9,268 nt of DNA from a virus (lineage: Duplodnaviria; Heunggongvirae; Uroviricota; Caudoviricetes): the IMG/VR virus record IMGVR_UViG_2740892422_000004, positions 1 to 9,268 of that record, one strand, 5' to 3'. Positions 1 to 9,268 of the stretch are shown in pieces. Each line of letters begins with the position of its first letter. Position 1 is the first letter of the stretch. The position numbers were made by a program, and so were the translations under genes. The notes under the pieces were generated by a model, which was given only the letters and a program-made list of their open reading frames with translations, was not told the DNA's origin and made no database searches.

Positions 1-89
1 AACAGGAGGGACAGCTGATAGAAACAGAAGCCACTGGAGCACCTCAAAAACACCATCATACACTAAATCAGTAAGTTGGCAGCATCACC
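1..89 (-). mobile_element. IS1 left-end fragment (IRL plus start of insA), element body extends leftward beyond the window
   Basis: Positions 1-89 are the exact reverse complement of 9180-9268 and match, from memory, the IS1 left end GGTGATGCTGCCAACTTACTGAT... The outermost IS1 base is at 89. The insA start (GTG GCT TCT GTT TCT ATC AGC TGT CCC..., MASVSISCP) reads on the minus strand from position 38 leftward. Confidence 0.9.
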
Positions 90-91
90 GA

Positions 92-238
92 TTAAAAAGA
101 GAATATCACATTGCTGAGGCTCGTTACTGGCGTAAAGCGGGAGATAAATCAAAGAAACAACTTTGTTTATGGCAAGCACAAAGAGAGCGCATGAATGAGC
201 GCGAATTTCTTTCCACCCCATCCGAATTACCATTCTGA
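92..238 (+). pseudogene. 3' remnant of a prophage ORF truncated by the left IS1 copy
   Basis: An open frame runs out of the IS1 end without a stop and continues to TGA at 236-238 (...LKREYHIAEARYWRKAGDKSKKQLCLWQAQRERMNEREFLSTPSELPF*), ending 9 nt before the next gene's start. No start codon or ribosome-binding site lies inside the non-IS1 part. Confidence 0.3.
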
Positions 239-246
239 GGCAAATT

Positions 247-927
247 ATGGGAACTGCGACATTAATACTCGGTGAATCTGGCACCGGAAAATCAACCAGC
301 ATGAGAAATATCAATCCAGAGGAAGCAATACTTATAAAACCAATAGGCAAGCCGCTGCCATTTAAATCAAAAGACTGGTTTGCATGGGATACCAGAGCAA
401 AAAAAGGAACCGTAGTTACCACTGACAAATGGGACGTAATAGTTGCCGTAATTAAACGTGCTCACGAATACGGGAAAAGAATCGTTATTGTTGATGACTT
501 CCAGTATGTGATGAGCAATGAGTTTATGCGCCGCTCAGAAGAAAAATCGTTTGATAAGTTTACTGAGATAGGCCGCCACGCATGGGAGGTCATTAAGGCT
601 GCGCAGGATGCGCCTGATGACCTGAGAGTCTATTTTCTTGCGCACACCGAAGAAACTCCTATGGGGCGTGTGAAAATGAAGACTATCGGCAAAATGCTGG
701 ACGAGAAAATCACTGTCGAAGGCATGTTTACTATAGTTCTTCGCACCCTTACCCGTGATGACCAGTTCTTTTTCACCACAAAAAACAACGGTGCAGACAC
801 TGTTAAATCCCCAATGGGAATGTTTGATTCCAATGAGATTGATAACGATCTCTCTTTCGTCGATGCCACTGTTTGTGATTACTACGGCATCAATAATGTT
901 CATCAAATTAAGGAAAACGCCGCATGA
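247..927 (+). CDS. Sak4-like phage recombination ATPase (RecA-like core, AAA_24-type)
   Basis: 226 aa. Walker A GESGTGKST near the N-terminus, Walker B RIVIVDD around residue 80. Size and motif layout fit phage Sak4 single-strand annealing ATPases. Shine-Dalgarno-like tgagg 8 nt upstream of ATG 247. Sits where lambda carries exo/bet in the early-left operon. Confidence 0.75.
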   Translation: MGTATLILGESGTGKSTSMRNINPEEAILIKPIGKPLPFKSKDWFAWDTRAKKGTVVTTDKWDVIVAVIKRAHEYGKRIVIVDDFQYVMSNEFMRRSEEKSFDKFTEIGRHAWEVIKAAQDAPDDLRVYFLAHTEETPMGRVKMKTIGKMLDEKITVEGMFTIVLRTLTRDDQFFFTTKNNGADTVKSPMGMFDSNEIDNDLSFVDATVCDYYGINNVHQIKENAA

Positions 928-1511
928 GCAACGTAATTTTTACTTATAACGAAGAAGCAGCACTGACCGCAGGGCAAGGTGGTTTTATTAACGAAACTGG
1001 CGCTCATATCATTACCATTACTGAAGCAGAACTAAAGCAATCAGAAAAAGGCGCAAAATTTATTGGATTTTCTGGCGAATCCGACGACGGACGTAAAATC
1101 CAATATCTTAGCGTTTGTGTTCAGAAAAATGACGGCACGGAAAATAAATTTGGCGCAAATGTCGTTCACGCCATGATGGGGTGTGCCGGGATTGGACAAT
1201 TAACGCAACATATGGTTTCCACCAGTAAATTTGTTGCACCTGAATTTCATGGAAAGAAAATCGGGTTAGTGCTCCAGAAAGTATTAACCACAAACAAAAA
1301 GACTGGCGCAGACAGCTACCAGATGGAAATACGCATCCCGTTTATTGCACAAACAGGTCAAACCCTTAAAGAAAAGGCGGAAGGCAAGCAACCAGAAACT
1401 ATCGCCAACATGGTTGCCAGCCTCAAAGATAAAGACAATCGCTCTAAAAACGTAAGCCATAATCATGCAGATGATTATGGTTACAGCCAGAACGATTACC
1501 CTCCTTTCTGA
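924..1511 (+). CDS. Sak4-associated putative ssDNA-binding protein with SSB-like C-terminal tip
   Basis: 195 aa. Start ATG overlaps the upstream stop (ATGA), indicating translational coupling. The C-terminus ...HNHADDYGYSQNDYPPF resembles the acidic/aromatic SSB tail (canonical ...DDDIPF). The N-terminal part does not look like a canonical SSB OB-fold by eye, so the function is inferred mainly from context and the tail. Confidence 0.45.
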   Translation: MSNVIFTYNEEAALTAGQGGFINETGAHIITITEAELKQSEKGAKFIGFSGESDDGRKIQYLSVCVQKNDGTENKFGANVVHAMMGCAGIGQLTQHMVSTSKFVAPEFHGKKIGLVLQKVLTTNKKTGADSYQMEIRIPFIAQTGQTLKEKAEGKQPETIANMVASLKDKDNRSKNVSHNHADDYGYSQNDYPPF

Positions 1512-1534
1512 TTACTGAAAATAAGGCTCCCATT

Positions 1535-1831
1535 ATGCCAGCGCCTCTGTATGGTGCGGATGACCCGCGCAACTGCTCCGGTAGCTCCAAGGCGGAGGTG
1601 CTGGAAAATATCAAAAACAATTTCGACGCGTTTCTTGCTCTGACACCAGAAACAAAAGCAGAACGGATGTACCGACGCTATATACAACTCGCGCTAAAAC
1701 AGGAGAAGGACCGAACAAACGAAACAGCAATGAGACCGTTGCGAAAAGCGACAATAGACAAATTCCCTGAATATATCGACCCGCGCCTGCGTAATTACCG
1801 CTCACGCTATGGCGCTATCAGTAATGACTGA
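1535..1831 (+). CDS. hypothetical prophage early-left protein (98 aa)
   Basis: Long ORF in the same orientation as its neighbours, with a charged, non-repetitive composition. The ribosome-binding site is weak (aagg), so the start is uncertain. Confidence 0.45.
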
Positions 1832-1841
1832 GGAATTTACC

Positions 1842-2006
1842 ATGAGAGGACTTGCCTACAATCCCGGCATTCTTCCGGCAGAAATGATTATTCGCCAACG
1901 CGTAAAGCCAATGCCATCGAGAGAGGAATTGCTTAAGAGAAATTCTTTTCCATCAGTGAATCAAAACAAATATCTGAATGCGATGTTGCGGAGTGGGAAG
2001 AAATGA
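1842..2006 (+). CDS. hypothetical small prophage protein (54 aa from ATG 1842; the track ORF starts at 1809)
   Basis: gagg lies 7-8 nt upstream of ATG 1842. Its stop overlaps the next gene's start (ATGA at 2003-2006). Confidence 0.4.
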
Positions 2007-2479
2007 AACAAATGTCACTAATTGAGATGGATGGATTCCTGAAAGGTAAATGCATCCCCCGAGATTTAAAGGTTAACGAAACAAACGCTGAATACCTTGT
2101 CCGTAAGTTCGGTGAACTTGAATCAAAACTGGAAACGGCGTTGCGGGAGTGTCGTTCTGCTGGAATCACGATTGATAACCTTGAGGCTAAATGCGCGAAG
2201 ATGGCTGCTGAAAATACCTCACTTAAGCAATCTGAGAAGGAATTTAATGACTTTTGTCGTGAGGAGTTTAGCGAATGGGAAGATGATGTTACTGAAACCC
2301 CAGCTACCGATGCTTTTCTGGCTGAAATTCGTGCGCAGGGCGTGGATATGGCTCGTAACGCGATGATTGATTTTGTTGATGGTGAAGTTGGGCCAAACAA
2401 GAACGTTCCGGGGCTGATTAGAGGCGCAGAGATATGCGTAAGTATTGCTGAACAGCTTCGCAAAGGAGGCAACCAGTGA
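2003..2479 (+). CDS. hypothetical coiled-coil phage protein (158 aa), possibly Ead/Ea22-like
   Basis: Translationally coupled on both sides (ATGA upstream, GTGA downstream). Acidic, helix-rich composition ([10 protein letters not shown]..., [18 protein letters not shown]). Confidence 0.5.
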
Positions 2480-2919
2480 GCAAGATTGATTATCAAAAGC
2501 TTCGTGAAATCGCTGAAAAAACAAAAATTGCTGGTGAAGCACCTGTAATGCCTTTCGATCAGCGAATTAATGCGCTTAACGATTTTATGAAGCATTTTTC
2601 GCCAGATATCGCGCTGGCATTGTTGGATGAACGGGAAAGAAACCTGCAATACATCAAAAGCCGCGATCAGGAGAACGAGGATATTGCGCTAACGGTAGGG
2701 AAGTGGCGCGTTGAGCTTGAGGCAGAAAAACAGCGGGCAAAGGATCTGTTTATGGAAAATGCTCGGCTTAAGTCAGGCATAGCCGGTCTGATACACCTCG
2801 GTATTCGATATGCAGATGTTGAGGTCATGAGAATTGCTGGAGATGCCCAGCTTTCTACCCCATGCACTGACAGCATCATAAACAGCATTGCAACAGGCAT
2901 TCGCATCAAAGGAGAGTGA
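2476..2919 (+). CDS. Ea22-like protein (147 aa)
   Basis: GTG start at 2476 preceded by aaaggagg. Segments LREIAEK..., ALALLDERERNLQYIKSRDQENEDIALTVGK.RVELE and the C-terminal GIRIKGE match my recollection of lambda Ea22 and the Ead/Ea22-like prophage family. It is shorter than lambda Ea22 (182 aa, from memory). Confidence 0.6.
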   Translation: MSKIDYQKLREIAEKTKIAGEAPVMPFDQRINALNDFMKHFSPDIALALLDERERNLQYIKSRDQENEDIALTVGKWRVELEAEKQRAKDLFMENARLKSGIAGLIHLGIRYADVEVMRIAGDAQLSTPCTDSIINSIATGIRIKGE

Positions 2920-2920
2920 T

Positions 2921-3409
2921 ATGAGCGCTATAACCAAAGAACGTATCAAATTATTCATTAAAAATCCGCTTGATAACGGACTTACTCGTGGCGAACAAAT
3001 GGAACTGGCACGAATTGCACTGGCATCGCTGGAAGCAGAGCCGGTGGCGTGGAAGGTAACATTCACGCAAATTGACCGTGAATATAACACGTTCACTGCT
3101 ATGTATTCTGACAAAGCAGAAGTCGAACGGTGGGTGCGACTGCATGAAGTAGGTGACTTTCGGGCAGATATAACACCGCTTTATACCGCCCAGCCAGCGC
3201 CGGTAATTCCGGATGGTTGGATAAGCTGTAGTGAGCGAATGCCCGCTCAAGATGATTGGATTTTAATTTATTCAAAGCACGGTGAGTATATGGCAGGACA
3301 GGTGCAAGGGGAATACGTGGAGTTGAGCGATGGCACTTTATCGTGGTTAGGGAGCGCCTTGTTCTGGATGCCGCTACCAGAACCGCCGCAGGAGGTTAAC
3401 CGTGGCTAA
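2921..3409 (+). CDS. DUF551-like prophage protein (162 aa from ATG 2921; the track ORF starts in frame at 2888)
   Basis: Strong ribosome-binding site aaaggagag ends 4 nt before ATG 2921, and the upstream gene's stop is at 2917-2919. The C-terminal region DGWISCSERMPAQDDWILIY...WMPLPEPP matches the DUF551 signature as I remember it. Confidence 0.55.
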   Translation: MSAITKERIKLFIKNPLDNGLTRGEQMELARIALASLEAEPVAWKVTFTQIDREYNTFTAMYSDKAEVERWVRLHEVGDFRADITPLYTAQPAPVIPDGWISCSERMPAQDDWILIYSKHGEYMAGQVQGEYVELSDGTLSWLGSALFWMPLPEPPQEVNRG

Positions 3410-3508
3410 CCTGCAACTTGCCGTCAAAGGTGAATAACAATCCTCGCACTCGCGGGGATTTCTTTTATCTGAACTCTCTACGGCGGTTTTTGTTTTATGG
3501 AGATGATT

Positions 3509-3808
3509 ATGATCTGTTCAACATTCAACCATCTAACGTTACAGAAATACCAGCCGGACCCTGAAGATTTATGCTCACTGTGTGGAGTAAATCATGGTAA
3601 AGCCGCCATGATCGAATGTAAGGACAAAATCCACATTTGCCTTAATTGCGTTGATGTCCTCGTTGATATCAAAAATGAGAGAGAAGATAAAAAGCGTAGC
3701 GAGGCTGTTCGCGCCTTAGATTCATGGATGCGAGATGGGTATAGTGCTGCGCAAATTTATGACTTAGCAATATCAAAAGGCGAAATACCAGGAGTGCGCA
3801 TCGAATAA
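3509..3808 (+). CDS. small zinc-ribbon-like protein (CxxC...CxxC), possible regulator (99 aa from ATG 3509)
   Basis: ggag at 3499-3502 lies 6 nt upstream of ATG 3509. Two CxxC pairs (CSLCG ... CLNC) about 25 residues apart; the C-terminal SAAQIYDLAISKGEIPGVRIE looks helix-turn-helix-like. In-frame ATGs at 3497 and 3503 are alternative starts. Confidence 0.5.
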   Translation: MICSTFNHLTLQKYQPDPEDLCSLCGVNHGKAAMIECKDKIHICLNCVDVLVDIKNEREDKKRSEAVRALDSWMRDGYSAAQIYDLAISKGEIPGVRIE

Positions 3809-3850
3809 GACGTAACCAATATTCGAATTGAAGAACTGAAAGAACACCAA

Positions 3851-3872
3851 GCCGCCTGATGGCGGTTTTTTA
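3851..3872 (+). terminator. intrinsic terminator-like hairpin
   Basis: gccgcc-tgat-ggcgg stem-loop (5-6 bp GC stem, 4-nt loop) followed by ttttttatt, 43 nt after the stop of the zinc-ribbon gene and directly before the ribosome-binding site of the next gene. Confidence 0.55.
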
Positions 3873-3885
3873 TTGGAGACAAGAA

Positions 3886-4230
3886 ATGTCAGATTTGGCT
3901 ATGAAGGTTTTGAAATGGCAATCGACTGGCGATGTTGGCATCAGTAGCGCAACTCTTGCCTCAATCGCATGTGGACTGAAAAAGAATATCTATGGTCATC
4001 ACTTCGGCGCTCCACATGACGCAGCAGACTTCCGGCGATGCGTTGCACTTGTTGAGCAGATTCCAGAAATCAGAGCTTCATTCGACAAAGTTGCAAAGCG
4101 CGTTCCTGCATTCAAAGGAATCCTCAACGAATGGGATTCCCTCGTTGCTCTGTTGAAGTCTGAAATGAAGATACACGGAAACAAAGCACCAGAGACTTAC
4201 AGAAGAATCAGCGAGCTACGCAAGGACTAA
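3886..4230 (+). CDS. hypothetical prophage protein (114 aa from ATG 3886; the track ORF starts at 3859 inside the hairpin)
   Basis: ggag at 3875-3878 lies 7 nt upstream of ATG 3886. Begins MSDLAMKVLKWQSTGDV...; no motif I recognise. Confidence 0.5.
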   Translation: MSDLAMKVLKWQSTGDVGISSATLASIACGLKKNIYGHHFGAPHDAADFRRCVALVEQIPEIRASFDKVAKRVPAFKGILNEWDSLVALLKSEMKIHGNKAPETYRRISELRKD

Positions 4231-4289
4231 CCACAGCCTCACACTCGATGAGGCCTGTTCATTTCTCAATGATATCCAGACCTACCATC

Positions 4290-4312
4290 GCCGCATCAAT
4301 GCGGCTTTTCTT
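4290..4312 (+). terminator. intrinsic terminator-like hairpin upstream of xis
   Basis: gccgc-atcaat-gcggc stem-loop followed by ttttctt. A second hairpin, gcctca-cactcga-tgaggc at 4236-4254, follows the upstream stop codon. Confidence 0.45.
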
Positions 4313-4336
4313 GCGTGTAATTGCGGAGACTTTGCG

Positions 4337-4555
4337 ATGTACTTGACACTTCAGGAGTGGAACGCTCGCCAGCGACGCCCAAGAAGCCTTGAAACAGTTC
4401 GTCGATGGGTGCGCGAATGCAGGATATTCCCTCCTCCTGTTAAGGATGGAAGAGAATATCTGTTCCACGAATCAGCGGTAAAGGTTGACTTAAATCGACC
4501 AGTAACAGGTAGCCTTTTGAAGAGGATCAGAAATGGGAAGAAGGCGAAGTCATGA
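4337..4555 (+). CDS. xis: excisionase Xis (lambda-type)
   Basis: 72 aa, MYLTLQEWNARQRRPRSLETVRRWVRECRIFPPPVKDGREYLFHESAVKVDLNRPV..., essentially the lambda Xis sequence as I recall it. Its 3' end overlaps the int start, as in lambda. Confidence 0.93.
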   Translation: MYLTLQEWNARQRRPRSLETVRRWVRECRIFPPPVKDGREYLFHESAVKVDLNRPVTGSLLKRIRNGKKAKS

Positions 4556-5603
4556 GCGCCGGGATTTACCCCCTAACCTTTATATAAGAAACAATGGATA
4601 TTACTGCTACAGGGACCCAAGGACGGGTAAAGAGTTCGGATTAGGCAGAGACAGGAGGATAGCAATCACTGAAGCAATACATGCCAACATTGAGTTATTT
4701 TCAGGACACAAACACAAGCCTCTGACAGCGAGAATCAACAGTGATAATTCTGTTACGTTACATTCATGGCTTGATCGCTACGAAAAAATCCTCGCCAGCA
4801 GAGGAATCAAGCAGAAGACACTCATAAATTACATGAGCAAAATTAAAGCAATAAGGAGGGGGCTGCCTGATGCTCCACTTGAAGACATCACCACAAAAGA
4901 AATTGCGGCAATGCTCAATGGATACATAGACGAGGGCAAGGCTGCGTCAGCCAAGTTAATCAGATCAACACTGAGCGATGCATTCCGAGAGGCTATAGCT
5001 GAAGGCCATATAACAACAAACCCGGTCGCAGCCACTCGCGCAGCAAAATCAGAGGTAAGGAGATCAAGACTTACGGCTGACGAATACCTGAAAATTTATC
5101 AAGCAGCAGAATCATCACCATGTTGGCTAAGACTTGCAATGGAACTGGCTGTTGTTACCGGGCAGCGAGTTGGGGATTTATGCGAAATGAAATGGTCTGA
5201 TATCGTAGATGGATATCTTTATGTCGAGCAAAGCAAAACAGGCGTAAAAATTGCCATCCCTACAACGTTGCATGTTGATGTTCTCGGAATATCAATGAAG
5301 GAAACACTTGATAAATGCAAAGAGATTCTTGGCGGAGAAACCATAATTGCATCTACTCGTCGCGAACCGCTTTCATCCGGCACAGTATCAAGGTATTTTA
5401 TGCGCGCACGAAAAGCATCAGGTCTTTCCTTCGAAGGGGATCCGCCTACCTTTCACGAGTTGCGCAGTTTGTCTGCAAGACTCTATGAGAAGCAGATAAG
5501 CGATAAGTTTGCTCAACATCTTCTCGGGCATAAGTCGGACACCATGGCATCACAGTATCGTGATGACAGAGGCAGGGAGTGGGACAAAATTGAAATCAAA
5601 TAA
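4533..5603 (+). CDS. int: tyrosine integrase Int (lambda-type)
   Basis: 356 aa, MGRRRSHERRDLPPNLYIRNNGYYCYRDPRTGKEFGLGRDRRIAITEA...HELRSLSARLYEKQISDKFAQHLLGHKSDTMASQYRDDRGREWDKIEIK, near-identical to lambda Int from memory with a few substitutions. Lies adjacent to the att site. Confidence 0.96.
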   Translation: MGRRRSHERRDLPPNLYIRNNGYYCYRDPRTGKEFGLGRDRRIAITEAIHANIELFSGHKHKPLTARINSDNSVTLHSWLDRYEKILASRGIKQKTLINYMSKIKAIRRGLPDAPLEDITTKEIAAMLNGYIDEGKAASAKLIRSTLSDAFREAIAEGHITTNPVAATRAAKSEVRRSRLTADEYLKIYQAAESSPCWLRLAMELAVVTGQRVGDLCEMKWSDIVDGYLYVEQSKTGVKIAIPTTLHVDVLGISMKETLDKCKEILGGETIIASTRREPLSSGTVSRYFMRARKASGLSFEGDPPTFHELRSLSARLYEKQISDKFAQHLLGHKSDTMASQYRDDRGREWDKIEIK

Positions 5604-5700
5604 TGATTTTATTTTGACTGATAGTGACCTGTTCGTTGCAACAAATTGATAAGCAATGCTTTTTTATAATGCCAACTTAGTATAAAAAAGCAGGCTTCAA
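5604..5700 (-). other. prophage attachment junction attL (B-O-P'), lambda att core on the minus strand
   Basis: 5604-5676 matches the lambda P' arm (ttgataagcaatgcttttttataatgccaactt, read on the opposite strand). The core TTAGTATAAAAAAGC at 5677-5691 is the reverse complement of GCTTTTTTATACTAA. The sequence after the core (aggcttca...) matches the attB bacterial arm, not attP. Confidence 0.9.
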
Positions 5701-5737
5701 CGGATTCATTTTTCTATTTCATAGCCCGGAGCAACCT

Positions 5738-7021
5738 GTGAACACATTTTCAGTTTCCCGTCTGGCGCTGGCATTGGCTTTTGGCGTGACGCTGACCGCC
5801 TGTAGCTCAACCCCGCCCGATCAACGTCCTTCTGATCAAACCGCGCCTGGTACCTCTTCTCGCCCGATTCTGTCGGCAAAAGAAGCGCAGAATTTCGATG
5901 CTCAACACTATTTTGCATCCCTGACACCAGGTGCTGCAGCGTGGAATCCTTCCCCGATTACCCTGCCTGCGCAACCTGACTTTGTTGTCGGCCCGGCGGG
6001 CACTCAAGGTGTAACGCATACCACGATTCAGGCGGCGGTAGATGCGGCAATTATCAAGCGTACCAACAAGCGCCAGTATATTGCCGTGATGCCTGGTGAG
6101 TATCAGGGAACGGTATATGTCCCTGCCGCTCCGGGTGGAATTACTCTGTACGGTACAGGTGAAAAACCGATTGATGTGAAGATTGGGCTTTCCCTTGATG
6201 GTGGCATGAGCCCTGCCGACTGGCGTCACGACGTCAACCCGCGCGGCAAATATATGCCAGGTAAACCAGCGTGGTATATGTACGATAGCTGCCAGAGCAA
6301 ACGCAGCGACAGTATCGGTGTTCTCTGCTCTGCGGTCTTCTGGTCACAAAACAATGGCCTGCAACTGCAAAATCTGACCATCGAAAACACGCTGGGCGAT
6401 AGCGTAGATGCAGGTAACCATCCGGCGGTGGCACTGCGTACTGATGGTGACCAGGTACAGATTAACAACGTTAACATTCTCGGTCGTCAGAACACCTTCT
6501 TTGTCACCAACAGCGGTGTGCAGAACCGTCTGGAAACGAATCGTCAGCCGCGTACGCTGGTGACCAACAGCTACATTGAAGGGGATGTGGATATCGTTTC
6601 TGGTCGCGGCGCAGTGGTGTTCGATAACACCGAATTCCGCGTGGTGAACTCACGTACTCAGCAAGAAGCGTATGTGTTTGCACCGGCTACGCTGTCCAAC
6701 ATTTACTACGGTTTCCTCGCCGTAAACAGCCGTTTCAATGCTTTCGGTGATGGTGTGGCGCAACTGGGCCGCTCGCTGGATGTTGATGCCAATACCAACG
6801 GTCAGGTGGTGATCCGTGATAGCGCCATCAACGAAGGTTTTAACACGGCTAAACCGTGGGCCGATGCGGTGATCTCTAATCGTCCGTTTGCGGGTAATAC
6901 CGGCAGCGTAGATGATAACGACGAAATACAGCGCAATCTGAATGACACTAACTACAACCGCATGTGGGAATACAATAACCGCGGCGTGGGTAGTAAAGTG
7001 GTTGCAGAGGCGAAGAAGTAA
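5738..7021 (+). CDS. ybhC: YbhC lipoprotein (pectinesterase-fold putative acyl-CoA thioesterase)
   Basis: 427 aa with GTG start. Signal peptide plus lipobox MNTFSVSRLALALAFGVTLTAC. Matches the E. coli gene flanking the lambda attB site as I recall it. ggag lies 8 nt upstream of the start. Confidence 0.88.
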   Translation: MNTFSVSRLALALAFGVTLTACSSTPPDQRPSDQTAPGTSSRPILSAKEAQNFDAQHYFASLTPGAAAWNPSPITLPAQPDFVVGPAGTQGVTHTTIQAAVDAAIIKRTNKRQYIAVMPGEYQGTVYVPAAPGGITLYGTGEKPIDVKIGLSLDGGMSPADWRHDVNPRGKYMPGKPAWYMYDSCQSKRSDSIGVLCSAVFWSQNNGLQLQNLTIENTLGDSVDAGNHPAVALRTDGDQVQINNVNILGRQNTFFVTNSGVQNRLETNRQPRTLVTNSYIEGDVDIVSGRGAVVFDNTEFRVVNSRTQQEAYVFAPATLSNIYYGFLAVNSRFNAFGDGVAQLGRSLDVDANTNGQVVIRDSAINEGFNTAKPWADAVISNRPFAGNTGSVDDNDEIQRNLNDTNYNRMWEYNNRGVGSKVVAEAKK

Positions 7022-7029
7022 GAGCAATT

Positions 7030-7245
<216 letters not shown>

Positions 7246-7254
7246 TGGCGCTTT

Positions 7255-9175
7255 TTACATCTGACGGTTTTTATTGAAGTTAATCAAACTACCCGCCTTG
7301 ATAATCTCGCGCTCTTCAGCAGTCAGACTTTCCATATAGAGCGTAATTTCCGTTACCGGCGCATCTTCATGGATCACATAACCTTTAAACGTCGTACCCG
7401 GATTATCCAGCGCCGCTTTAATGCCAGGGATGTAAATGTAATCCCCCACTTCAAAGGTTGGTACTTCCGCCATTTGCAGCGGTAACATCCCCCAGTTGAT
7501 GACGTTAGAACGATAGCGTTTAGTCGCGTACTCCTCGGCAATATTCGCCAGACCGCCAATCACACGCTGGCAGCTCGCCGCCTGTTCACGCGCAGAACCA
7601 TCGCCTGGTTTCACCGCATAGACCATGCTGCCAATTTCAGTTTGCAGCGGATCAATATGCTCCTGACCAGCAATCTGCTTAATGCGCGCAAACACCTCTG
7701 TCAGCTCGCTGACATTCCCCGCCAGACGCTGATTTTCCAGCTCAGCAGTCGCTTTACTTCTGCTAACATAACCGGGATCGCGGCGAGACAGGGTAAACTC
7801 CGCCAGACCAATCGGATTTGAACGATAAGAAGAGGTTTCACCGGAAGGAATCAGTTCGTCGGTGGTGGTCACTTCGTCGAGGATCTTCGAGCACACTTTC
7901 AGGACGATATTGTCAGTCAGCGCACCCAATTCCGGCCAGTCTTTAATGTTCGGCCCGTAAATCAGCGGTTGCTGAGTTGCCCCTTTCACAAAGCCCTGAT
8001 AAACACGGTTTTTATACGGCGTTACATCGAAGGCGTACTCCGGCACGTTGTCCCAGCAATCAAGTTCGCTGGCAGAGGTTAAATAGCCACCGTTTGCCGC
8101 AGTCGCAGCGATAGAACGAGCGTCCATCAACGCCACCGCTGACATCTGCCCATTAGCTGGCTTAGAGCCTTCGCGGTTCGGGAAGTTACGCGTGGTGTGG
8201 CGAATACTCAAACCGTTGTTGATTGGCGTATCGCCCGCGCCAAAGCATGGGCCGCAGAACGCGGTTCTGATGATTGCGCCTGCGCCAATCAAATCTGCTA
8301 CCACACCTTTTTTGGCGAGATCCATAAACACCGGCTGTGATGACGGGTAAACTGCCAGCGAGAAGGTGTCATTGCCACAGGATTGACCGCGCAGTGCATT
8401 CGCCGCCGCGATGACGTTTTCGTAGTTACCGCCAGAACAGCCCGCGATAATCCCCTGCTGCACTTTCAGGCGACCATTTTCCACTTTATCCAGCAGCGAG
8501 AGTTTGGCTTTACCGTGCGCCACGCGTTCGGACTCAATTTCAATCTCACGCAGAATGTCGGTCAGGTTCTGGTTCAGTGTGTCGATTTCATACACGTTGC
8601 TCGGGTGGAACGGCAGCGCAATCATTGGTTTGATGGCGCTTAAATCAACGCTGATGCAGCCATCGTAGTACGCCATCGGTTGAGGGTTAAGCTGGCAGTA
8701 ATCCTGGCCGCGACCGTGCAGCGCCAGCCAGTTATGGACTTCTTCATCGGTTTGCCAGACAGAACTTAAACAGGTCGTTTCAGTGGTCATCACGTCAACG
8801 CTGTTACGGAAATCGGTAGAGAGCGCGCTAACGCCCGGTCCAACGAACTCCATGACTTTGTTTTTGACGTAACCGTTTTTGAACACCGCGCCAATGATAG
8901 CCAGCGCCACATCCTGTGGCCCCACATACGGCGCAGGTTTTCCGGTCAGATGCACCGCAACCACGCCCGGATAGTCGATATCCCAGGTGTCATTAAGCAG
9001 CTGTTTTACCAACTCACCGCCGCCCTCACCGACTGCCATTGTCCCTAATGCACCGTAACGGGTGTGGCTGTCTGACCCGAGGATCATTTTGCCGCCGCCT
9101 GCCATCATCTCACGCATATATTGATGGATGACCGCAATATGCGGAGGCACAAAAATACCGCCATAACGCTGGGCC
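7255..9175 (-). pseudogene. ybhJ: ybhJ (aconitase-family putative hydratase), 3' portion only, interrupted by IS1
   Basis: Minus-strand ORF with the aconitase-type GSDSHT motif. Its reading frame runs straight into the IS1 end at 9176, so the first codons of the track ORF (MAAS) are IS1-derived and the native N-terminal part is absent from the window. Confidence 0.75.
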
Positions 9176-9268
9176 GGTGATGCTGCCAACTTACTGATTT
9201 AGTGTATGATGGTGTTTTTGAGGTGCTCCAGTGGCTTCTGTTTCTATCAGCTGTCCCTCCTGTTCAGC
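9176..9268 (+). mobile_element. IS1 left-end fragment (IRL plus start of insA), element body extends rightward beyond the window
   Basis: ggtgatgctgccaacttactgatttagtgtatgatggtgtttttgaggtgctccagtggcttctgtttctatcagctgtccctcctgttcagc matches the IS1 left end from memory. The insA GTG start is at 9231. The exact first base is uncertain by 1-2 nt because of the flanking g-run. Confidence 0.92.

Follow-up and report, generated by a model that had tools for sequence, protein, structure and literature searches.

An early-left accessory region of a lambdoid prophage in Escherichia coli, with an Abc2 homologue, exchangeable ea-type genes and two uncharacterised genes ahead of xis

This report concerns a block of seven small genes, O1 to O7, at positions 1535-4230 of a 9,268-nucleotide (nt) stretch of viral DNA (Duplodnaviria; Heunggongvirae; Uroviricota; Caudoviricetes; positions 1 to 9,268 of IMG/VR record IMGVR_UViG_2740892422_000004). 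We call this whole stretch the window; it is the left arm of a lambdoid prophage that occupies attB-lambda, the lambda attachment site of Escherichia coli. We interpret the block as the P22/HK022-type early-left "ea" (exo-xis) accessory region of this prophage, a site of cassette exchange whose products would be small non-enzymatic binders of host or rival-element proteins, and we put the probability of this interpretation at roughly 0.75. The block is an ordinary mosaic region, a new combination of known cassettes in which five of the seven genes can be named, and O6 and O7 are truly uncharacterised. What the analysis mainly achieves is a correction of annotation: seven apparent unknowns are a standard, reshuffled lambdoid accessory region, and one of them is an Abc2 with a solved structure and a known target. 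Nothing that we found overturns current understanding, and the remaining leads, O3 (an allele of the Oad2 family), O6 (resembling the zinc-binding domain (ZBD) of ClpX) and O7 (a member of a large family), are modest ones.

Gene content and setting

The features of the locus are collected in Table 1. In relatives that are uninterrupted at the left end of this region, N, cIII and kil lie upstream of the Sak4/SSB genes, and xis and int lie downstream of the block, so the + strand of the block is the direction of the pL early-left transcript. Beyond the att core follow the host genes ybhC and then ybhJ.

Table 1. Features of the block and its surroundings in window coordinates (aa, amino acids; bp, base pairs)
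Feature	Positions	Strand	Length	Identification and remarks
O1	1535-1831	+	98 aa	Abc2, anti-RecBCD protein 2, of the RecC-binding RecBCD hijacker type (PF11043)
O2	1842-2006	+	54 aa	DUF2737 (PF10930); P22 orf56 / HK022 gp38 / HK446 gp28 type
O3	2003-2479	+	158 aa	EaE/Oad2 family (phrog_614, E 6e-59)
O4	2476-2919	+	147 aa	Ead/Ea22-family coiled-coil protein, EaD type (PF13935)
O5	2921-3409	+	162 aa	Shortened EaA type: EaA N-terminal module (aa 1-49) and C-terminal DUF551 (PF04448)
T1 hairpin	3439-3460	+		Terminator-like; 9-bp stem and T tract; in O5-O6 gap; fold -13.7 kcal/mol
O6	3509-3808	+	99 aa (103 aa from start 3497)	933W L0063 type (phrog_3680, E 8e-68)
orf55 remnant	3815-3859	+	45 nt	3' end of lambda orf55 / HK022 gp33-type gene (..DVTNIRIEELKEHQAA*), just after O6; from translation and blastn
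T2 hairpin	3849-3868	+		Terminator-like; T tract abuts O7 ribosome-binding site; conserved in HK022, Gally, 720R6
O7	3886-4230	+	114 aa	HK022 gp32 type; seven-helix domain
T3 hairpin	4290-4305	+		Terminator-like, upstream of xis; conserved in HK022, Gally
Sak4-like ATPase	247-927	+		phrog_2872 (E 6e-108); PF13479
SSB-like protein	924-1511	+		phrog_743 (E 4e-66)
xis	4337-4555	+		Lambda type; PF07825 (E 4e-41)
int	4533-5603	+		Lambda type; from annotated relatives
att core	5677-5691			Exact lambda core GCTTTTTTATACTAA, 74 nt beyond int stop; prophage-host junction

Each of the seven open reading frames (ORFs) matches a PHROG family (E 1e-37 to 1e-68) and has homologues in sequenced phages at 55-100% identity, while the antisense and alternative-frame ORFs of the block match nothing, and we therefore regard O1 to O7 as real genes. 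A 238-aa antisense ORF opposite O3/O4 (1933-2649, -) has no PHROG match and is taken as spurious, a by-product of coding-strand composition. A sequence-only reading of this DNA had described seven same-strand ORFs of 54-162 aa here as a lambdoid early-left accessory region between the recombination module and xis, and all seven are present at those lengths, in agreement with it on location and orientation. That reading had also called the ORFs packed, citing junctions that are exact (ATGA at 2003, where the O2 stop overlaps the O3 start; GTGA at 2476; a 1-nt gap at 2920), but close packing is restricted to O1-O5, and the gaps before O6, O7 and xis measure 99, 77 and 106 nt and each hold a terminator-like hairpin.

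As had been noted from the letters alone, the block carries no nuclease, helicase or other enzymatic domain that scans with Pfam, NCBIfam and PADLOC could find; none of the seven ORFs matches a PADLOC component model at E<=0.01, and the NCBIfam and PADLOC searches of the block returned nothing useful. Five of the ORFs had been thought to match nothing nameable, which holds for the uncharacterised O6 and O7 but not for O1 (Abc2), O2 (DUF2737) and O3 (EaE/Oad2). The seven do not all fall into well-characterised families of housekeeping function, and to that extent the earlier view of the region stands.

An Abc2 homologue beside a Sak4/SSB-type recombination module

Judged by its sequence, O1 is a member of the Abc2 family. 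It matches PF11043 over residues 1-98 of 98 (E 8.8e-36, 122.4 bits against a cut-off of 25), phrog_656 at E 5e-45, and the structure of P22 Abc2 (PDB 8b1t_A/8b1u) over residues 1-98 at E 2.4e-32, and it is 61% identical to P22 Abc2 from end to end. In P22 Abc2, Pro68 occupies the active site of the host protein PpiB, and Abc2 binds RecC and is thought to hijack RecBCD for the phage recombinase (PMC9836394). O1 keeps this proline (R-P-L at 67-69), and it occupies the slot right after the annealing-protein module, as P22 Abc2 does; it differs in that it is paired with a Sak4-type recombinase, whereas the P22 protein is paired with one of the Erf type. No homologue of Abc1 or Arf is visible in the window.

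O1 is functionally part of the recombination module, here of the Sak4/SSB type as in HK75, so that the block as drawn by the sequence-only reading, which had set it beyond that module, lies beyond it for the rest of its genes but not for O1. The family and mechanism of O1 are taken from sequence and published structures, and its activity in this prophage is inferred. O1 would bind RecC, and RecBCD, a nuclease that otherwise destroys the phage, would become a resection engine for the phage's own annealing system, which here would consist of the Sak4-like and SSB-like proteins in place of Erf.

A DUF2737 gene next to an EaE/Oad2-family gene

O2 covers positions 1-53 of the 53 in PF10930 (E 6.5e-32, 109.6 bits, cut-off 25) and is 98% identical to HK022 gp38 and 77% identical to P22 orf56. 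A DUF2737 gene stands directly upstream of an EaE-family gene in 7/7 phage genomes inspected (P22, HK022, HK97, HK446, HK75, HK620 and 720R6, the pairing in HK97 and HK620 being taken from listed annotated features), and the same adjacency is found in two E. coli prophages examined; the two genes overlap wherever the junction was read. Phage records with a gene of the O2 type number 292 and those with a gene of the O3 type 286. These regularities suggest that the DUF2737 and EaE-family genes are a functional pair, an idea on which it weighs that Oad2 by itself sufficed in the preprint that describes it (bioRxiv 10.64898/2026.07.10.737580). Besides that preprint on OLD, we found no functional studies in the literature on DUF2737 and P22 EaA/EaD/EaE.

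O3 begins with a conserved module (aa 1-70) in which a coiled coil is predicted, and a conserved motif, a variable region and a QLRKGGNQ tail follow. In full-length blastp comparisons it is 55.3% identical over 158/175 aa to HK446 gp27, which is Oad2, and 71.3% identical to HK75 gp28, and it is 64% identical to P22 EaE over aa 60-113, the motif region. An alignment of O3, Oad2 and HK75 gp28 shows that the three have in common near-identical N-terminal 70 aa, a motif ending in (I/V)RAQ and the QLRKGGNQ tail, and that they diverge between these shared parts, in O3 over the variable region at aa 70-150; the RKG of the tail is invariant across all EaE-family variants aligned. HK446 gp27 and HK75 gp28 are 53.9% identical in our hands, which reproduces the 54% of the preprint and thus indicates that the right proteins were compared. 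Like Oad2, O3 sits in the slot after Abc2 and DUF2737, and HK446, HK75, HK022, P22 and 720R6 all have the order Abc2, (optional gene), DUF2737, EaE-type gene.

According to the preprint, P2 OLD is an abortive-infection tRNase that fires when phage proteins disable RecBCD. The preprint further reports that Oad2 blocks this activation by binding OLD directly, that it is a relative of P22 EaE and in some cases occurs as a fusion with EaD/Ea22 or HNH modules, and that the HK75 homologue, 54% identical to Oad2, fails to inhibit P2 OLD (bioRxiv 10.64898/2026.07.10.737580). If O3 acts like Oad2, it would be a stoichiometric binder and inhibitor of an OLD-type or similar ATPase-nuclease sensor, with its target specificity set by the variable region at aa 70-150. 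The target is probably not P2 OLD itself, activity against which is doubtful because O3 is 71% identical to the HK75 homologue that is inactive on it. That O3 travels with Abc2 fits the idea put forward in the preprint that inhibitors accumulate beside the RecBCD manipulators that trigger such sensors, and a position beside a RecBCD manipulator is what would be expected if anti-OLD-type inhibitors travel with the triggers for which they compensate. Regions of this kind had been expected to carry host-takeover or anti-defence functions, an expectation borne out in that Abc2 is one such function and O3 belongs to the family of an OLD inhibitor. With O3 the just-described Oad2/EaE family gains a third allele class, and the divergent region of O3 could help to map specificity.

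The C-terminal two-thirds of O3 (aa 60-158) are also 86% identical to an unannotated stretch in P1-like phage-plasmids (MH422554, near RecT and EaA genes), so these modules circulate outside lambdoid phages too.

EaD/Ea22- and EaA-type genes

The assignments of O4 and O5 to Ea22-like and DUF551-like proteins had been regarded as weak, and both in fact lie above the Pfam cut-offs. O4 matches PF13935 at E 6.4e-21 (75.8 bits, cut-off 27). By blastp its identity to Gally EaD is 64% along the whole protein, and its identity to lambda Ea22 is 54% and confined to the N-terminal and coiled-coil part (aa 1-87 of O4, against aa 1-78 of lambda Ea22); similarity ends at aa 87, and the C-terminal domain of O4 differs from that of lambda Ea22, a dimer solved by nuclear magnetic resonance. 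A PDB search with O4 gave no match at E<=1. The DUF551 match (PF04448, E 5.7e-10, 40.3 bits, cut-off 22) covers aa 110-168 of a 173-aa ORF at 2888-3409, equivalent to approximately aa 99-157 of O5, and O5 matches phrog_60 at E 2.7e-58. It is 71% identical to aa 1-49 and 42% identical to aa 249-316 of P22 EaA, a protein of 317 aa whose middle ~200 aa are missing from O5.

Both proteins would be modular, a coiled coil or an N-terminal module bearing a swappable C-terminal domain. Ea22 is pro-lysogenic in lambda and in Shiga toxin (Stx) phages (PMC10834534), and by analogy with lambda and Stx Ea22, O4 and O5 may modulate the lysis-lysogeny balance.

Junctions, hairpins and transcription

The invariant RKGG tail of O3 (2455-2479) encodes the AAGGAGG ribosome-binding site for O4, and the GIRIKGE tail of O4 (2895-2920), which encodes the ribosome-binding site for O5, is also the tail of the otherwise unrelated HK022 gp37 end. 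On these sequences, the gene ends of O3 and O4 look like recombination or exchange points.

A scan found 7 terminator-like sites against 3.1 +/- 2.0 in shuffles, and T1-T3, all GC-rich with a T tract behind them, fall exactly in the three intergenic gaps. The block would be transcribed from pL as part of a delayed-early transcript that leads from the recombination genes to xis and int. On this transcript O1-O5 would be made as a translationally coupled set, and O6, O7 and then xis and int would follow, with read-through of T1-T3 depending on antitermination. Each of O6 and O7 is a cassette of one gene behind a terminator-like hairpin and would therefore be expressed mainly under antitermination. 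We find no support for regarding them as independently transcribed morons, since no consensus sigma-70 promoter was found in 1400-4600.

O6, a ClpX-ZBD-like zinc ribbon in the orf55 slot

O6, with a GGAG 6 nt ahead of its ATG at 3509, is 97% identical to 933W ST933Wp03 (L0063), a gene that stands just upstream of xis in many Stx phages, while P22, lambda, HK022, Gally and 720R6 all lack a homologue of it. Its family is small (34 clusters) and apparently all enterobacterial, as are all named matches. The DNA on either side has a different distribution. By blastn, the upstream flank (3431-3507) shows 92-97% identity with lambda, HK022, Gally, 720R6 and 933W, and the downstream flank (3808-3900) 98.5-99% identity with lambda, HK022, Gally and 720R6; in these last four the same flanks enclose orf55/gp33, and the coding body alone differs. 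The 933W genome matches 3431-3874 contiguously at 97%. Just after O6 remains the 45-nt end of orf55, the only trace of lambda orf55 in the block, with its stop codon in the loop of T2. From this remnant we conclude that a cassette swap between conserved flanks put O6 in the place of orf55. The orf55 locus thus holds O6 as an allelic cassette, which reuses the same ribosome-binding site and hairpins.

The family core YQPDPEDLCSLCG...HIC-x2-C is invariant and is followed by a variable C-terminus that ends in a conserved IP-IRI(D/E). Four cysteines (C22, C25, C44 and C47) are invariant in 21 family members, and their spacing, CxxC-18-CxxC, is that of ClpX C14/C17/C36/C39; a helix motif, IC-ECVDL--I--E, is likewise shared with ClpX. 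The AlphaFold2 monomer model of O6 has a hairpin at 32-44 and a helix at 45-75, in the beta-hairpin-then-helix order of the ClpX N-terminal ZBD (PF06689; PDB 1OVX, 2DS5-8). O6 differs from ClpX in being a free-standing protein of 99 aa with no AAA+ module, and from the ClpX ZBD in its N-terminal segment, which reads YQPDPEDL, and in a helical tail that is variable; the ribbon is followed by a long helix and a basic stretch.

How much this resemblance means is evenly balanced in our judgement, for O6 could just as well be a generic zinc-ribbon protein, nucleic-acid-binding or regulatory, whose likeness to ClpX is convergent or reflects just a shared treble-clef scaffold. All scores between O6 and ClpX are below curated thresholds (E 0.01 and 16.2 bits against Pfam zf-C4_ClpX, where the cut-off is 27; E 0.002 against NCBIfam clpX), the confidence of the model is only 66.6 (predicted local distance difference test, pLDDT), and the basic stretch behind the ribbon would suit such a protein. 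With Foldseek the model has no significant match (E-values all >0.6): the top matches include ClpG N1 and ClpX chains and also RING fingers, and RING or ribosomal zinc ribbons score similarly to ClpX. Against a generic ribbon stand the identical cysteine spacing and the shared helix motif, together with the searches of the PDB, in which all five matches to the family profile at E<=10 are ClpX chains (E 0.03-0.8) and a single sequence finds three ClpX ZBD entries first, with weaker non-ClpX matches after them. An hhalign comparison of the O6 family with E. coli ClpX 1-70 gives a probability of 91.9% against 7.5% for a provisional TraR zinc finger sequence used as control, and O6 shows no similarity to the Ea8.5 zinc finger. 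We accordingly call O6 "ClpX-ZBD-like" and not a family member.

Two other zinc-finger types were considered for O6 and rejected. A TraR/Orf73-type finger, excluded for O6 only, is disfavoured by the hhalign value obtained with the provisional TraR sequence and by a model with no N-terminal helix, and an Ea8.5-type finger by the lack of any Ea8.5 entry (2M7A/2M7B) among the PDB matches at E<=10.

SspB, RssB, trigger factor, lambda O and MuA all dock on the ClpX N-terminal domain, which is a dimer (PMC7804408). This opens a bolder proposal, improbable in our estimate, which covers it jointly with the claim made for O7 below, namely that O6 is a free-standing mimic of the ClpX ZBD that would reprogram the substrate choice of ClpXP in early infection. 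Such a mimic would dimerise with ClpX N-domains, or it would soak up the docking ligands (SspB, RssB, trigger factor, lambda O-type or MuA-type degrons). A limited literature search found no phage-encoded decoy of the ClpX N-terminal docking domain; the word ClpX is absent from a 2021 review on modelling of exo-xis proteins, and a ClpX-type zinc domain goes unmentioned in the exo-xis literature searched. O6 is widespread in Stx phages (933W, VT2-Sakai), for which a ClpX-type domain would supply a testable partner hypothesis in medically relevant phages.

O7, a member of a large helical family

HK022 gp32, Gally gp20 and the 720R6 homologue share 97-98% identity with O7, and each is the last gene before xis in its phage. 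The AlphaFold2 model of O7 is confident (pLDDT 93.5, predicted template modelling score 0.87) and consists of seven helices, and a comparison with the structure libraries searched gave no informative fold match. A profile search of 1.84 billion representatives found at least 2,848 clusters at E<=1e-3 and 646 at E<=1e-10, with homologues in lambdoid, P22-like, N15-like, Mu-like, Vibrio, Mannheimia, Arthrobacter and Clavibacter phages that are always annotated as hypothetical; 70 diverse members yielded no recurrent Pfam match, even at E<=1. The family is thus a very large one among phage proteins, with a confident model unlike any structure in the libraries searched, and still lacks a Pfam match. 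That O7 would be the first studied member of this family of at least 2,848 clusters, without a Pfam match and reaching from enterobacterial to actinobacterial phages, is the other half of the claim whose joint estimate with the O6 mimic is low.

Residues S20, P43, D45, D48, R51, C52 and W83 are invariant in the family, which carries an invariant S-S/P-D-D-R-C cluster, and this conservation suggests a specific binding or catalytic site. In the Mannheimia phage vB_MhS_1152AP2, a 33%-identical homologue (2444-2909 of its locus) lies directly upstream of xis-int and is bracketed by annotated rho-independent terminators. There too a hairpin and T tract abut the ribosome-binding site, repeating the layout of T2 in a different sequence that is annotated as a terminator. 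The PY54 and SuMu homologues are found among early recombination and anti-nuclease genes, and for distant relatives the context contigs are only 0.6-2.5 kb long. Our best guess is that O7 binds a host or defence protein.

Some proteins carry an O7-like domain as part of a longer chain. A 558-aa protein on a 1.9-kb contig of Logan SRR30503383 joins a CCA-adding enzyme (PolyA_pol head, RNA-binding and HD domains) to a C-terminal O7-like domain, a fusion seen just once and on a short contig. Among the fusion candidates there is also one tandem duplication of the O7 domain. Fusions to ERF, Kil, Ea22 and PF04447 come mostly from clusters of 1-3 sequences and were set aside as probable recombinants or mis-calls. 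The fusions are too thin for a function to be derived from them.

Mosaicism and relation to known regions

Of 5,426 complete E. coli genomes, 3,637 (67%) carry pieces of the block, as do 548 phage records, and no phage record or complete E. coli genome holds 80% or more of it in one place; the exact combination is found in none of them. For O2, O6 and O7, plaque-forming phages (Huey, HK022, 933W, CurroJimenez) carry genes that are 97-100% identical. Mapped gene by gene against P22, HK022, Gally, lambda, 933W, HK446 and HK75, the block agrees best in plan with the P22 ea and HK022-HK97 early-left regions, with which it shares position, orientation, the order Abc2, DUF2737, EaE, EaD/Ea22, EaA/DUF551, then single genes and xis, and the same stop-start coupling. 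It differs from the P22 region in having Sak4-like and SSB-like genes upstream where P22 has Erf/Abc1, in its halved EaA and in the absence of eaF, orf45, eaI, eaG and eaC, and it differs from both P22 and HK022 in an O6 that comes from the 933W lineage.

With the lambda/Stx exo-xis region the block shares its location between recombination genes and xis, an Ea22-type protein and the orf55 slot, whose flanking hairpins are 96-99% identical to lambda. The differences lie in the C-terminal domain of O4, which is unlike the solved lambda Ea22 domain, and in the coding repertoire: lambda orf55, ea8.5, orf61, orf63 and orf60a have no blastp match to the seven ORFs at E<=0.01 (orf73 was outside the comparison).

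Weighing the interpretation

The interpretation of the block as an ea-type accessory region coding for small binders builds on the identities of its parts, their order and coupling, the hairpins, the mosaic junctions and the absence of enzyme and defence-system domains. Several points weigh against it. What O2, O4, O5, O6 and O7 do is inferred solely from their families or folds, the Oad2 evidence comes from a July 2026 preprint, and O3 is by sequence closer to the HK75 homologue that is inactive on P2 OLD (71%) than to Oad2 (55%). T1-T3 are pattern matches and not mapped terminators. Finally, an IS1 element in the pL operon upstream may reduce transcription into the block. The end of this IS1 occupies 1-88 of the window, with its outer end at about 88; most related genomes match the window from 89, and records that carry the IS1 match it from position 3. 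It splits a 62-aa ORF between kil and the Sak4-like gene that is intact in uninterrupted relatives. This small ORF was considered as the OLD trigger of HK75, gp33, and rejected; it resembles HK022 gp42.

If the block were instead mainly a set of lysis-lysogeny or host-physiology modulators of the lambda/Stx exo-xis kind and not of anti-defence genes, O3-O7 would tune induction and host stress through transcription or proteolysis factors. We consider this possible but rather unlikely. The Ead_Ea22 signature of O4 would agree with it, given the pro-lysogenic role of Ea22, as would the position of O6 in the slot of lambda orf55, which a review modelled as T7 Gp2-like, the fit of a ClpX-type domain with control of protein stability, and the placement of the O7 type directly upstream of xis-int in two distant phages. 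However, the lambda core genes orf60a, orf63 and orf61 are without a homologue here, and the only family members with a demonstrated molecular target, Abc2 (RecBCD) and Oad2 (OLD), both act in counter-defence; nor are the two kinds of role mutually exclusive.

Least probable of all is that the block is decaying cargo of a defective prophage, its genes hitch-hiking with no current function in this strain, for although the upstream IS1, an O5 half the length of P22 EaA, the 45-nt orf55-type remnant and pseudogenised Ea22 fragments in related prophages could be signs of decay, 7/7 reading frames are intact, their ribosome-binding sites are plausible and their junctions coupled, O2, O6 and O7 nearly match genes of plaque-forming phages, int, xis and the att core are intact, and short EaA-type variants occur in viable phages too (HK022 gp35/gp36).

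An Rfam scan gave no match inside the block. Outside it, between ybhC and ybhJ, lie three repetitive extragenic palindromic (REP)-type elements at 7024-7252 (Rfam naRNA4/CssrE), one of them, at 7090-7160, above the gathering score; these are ordinary host intergenic repeat DNA.

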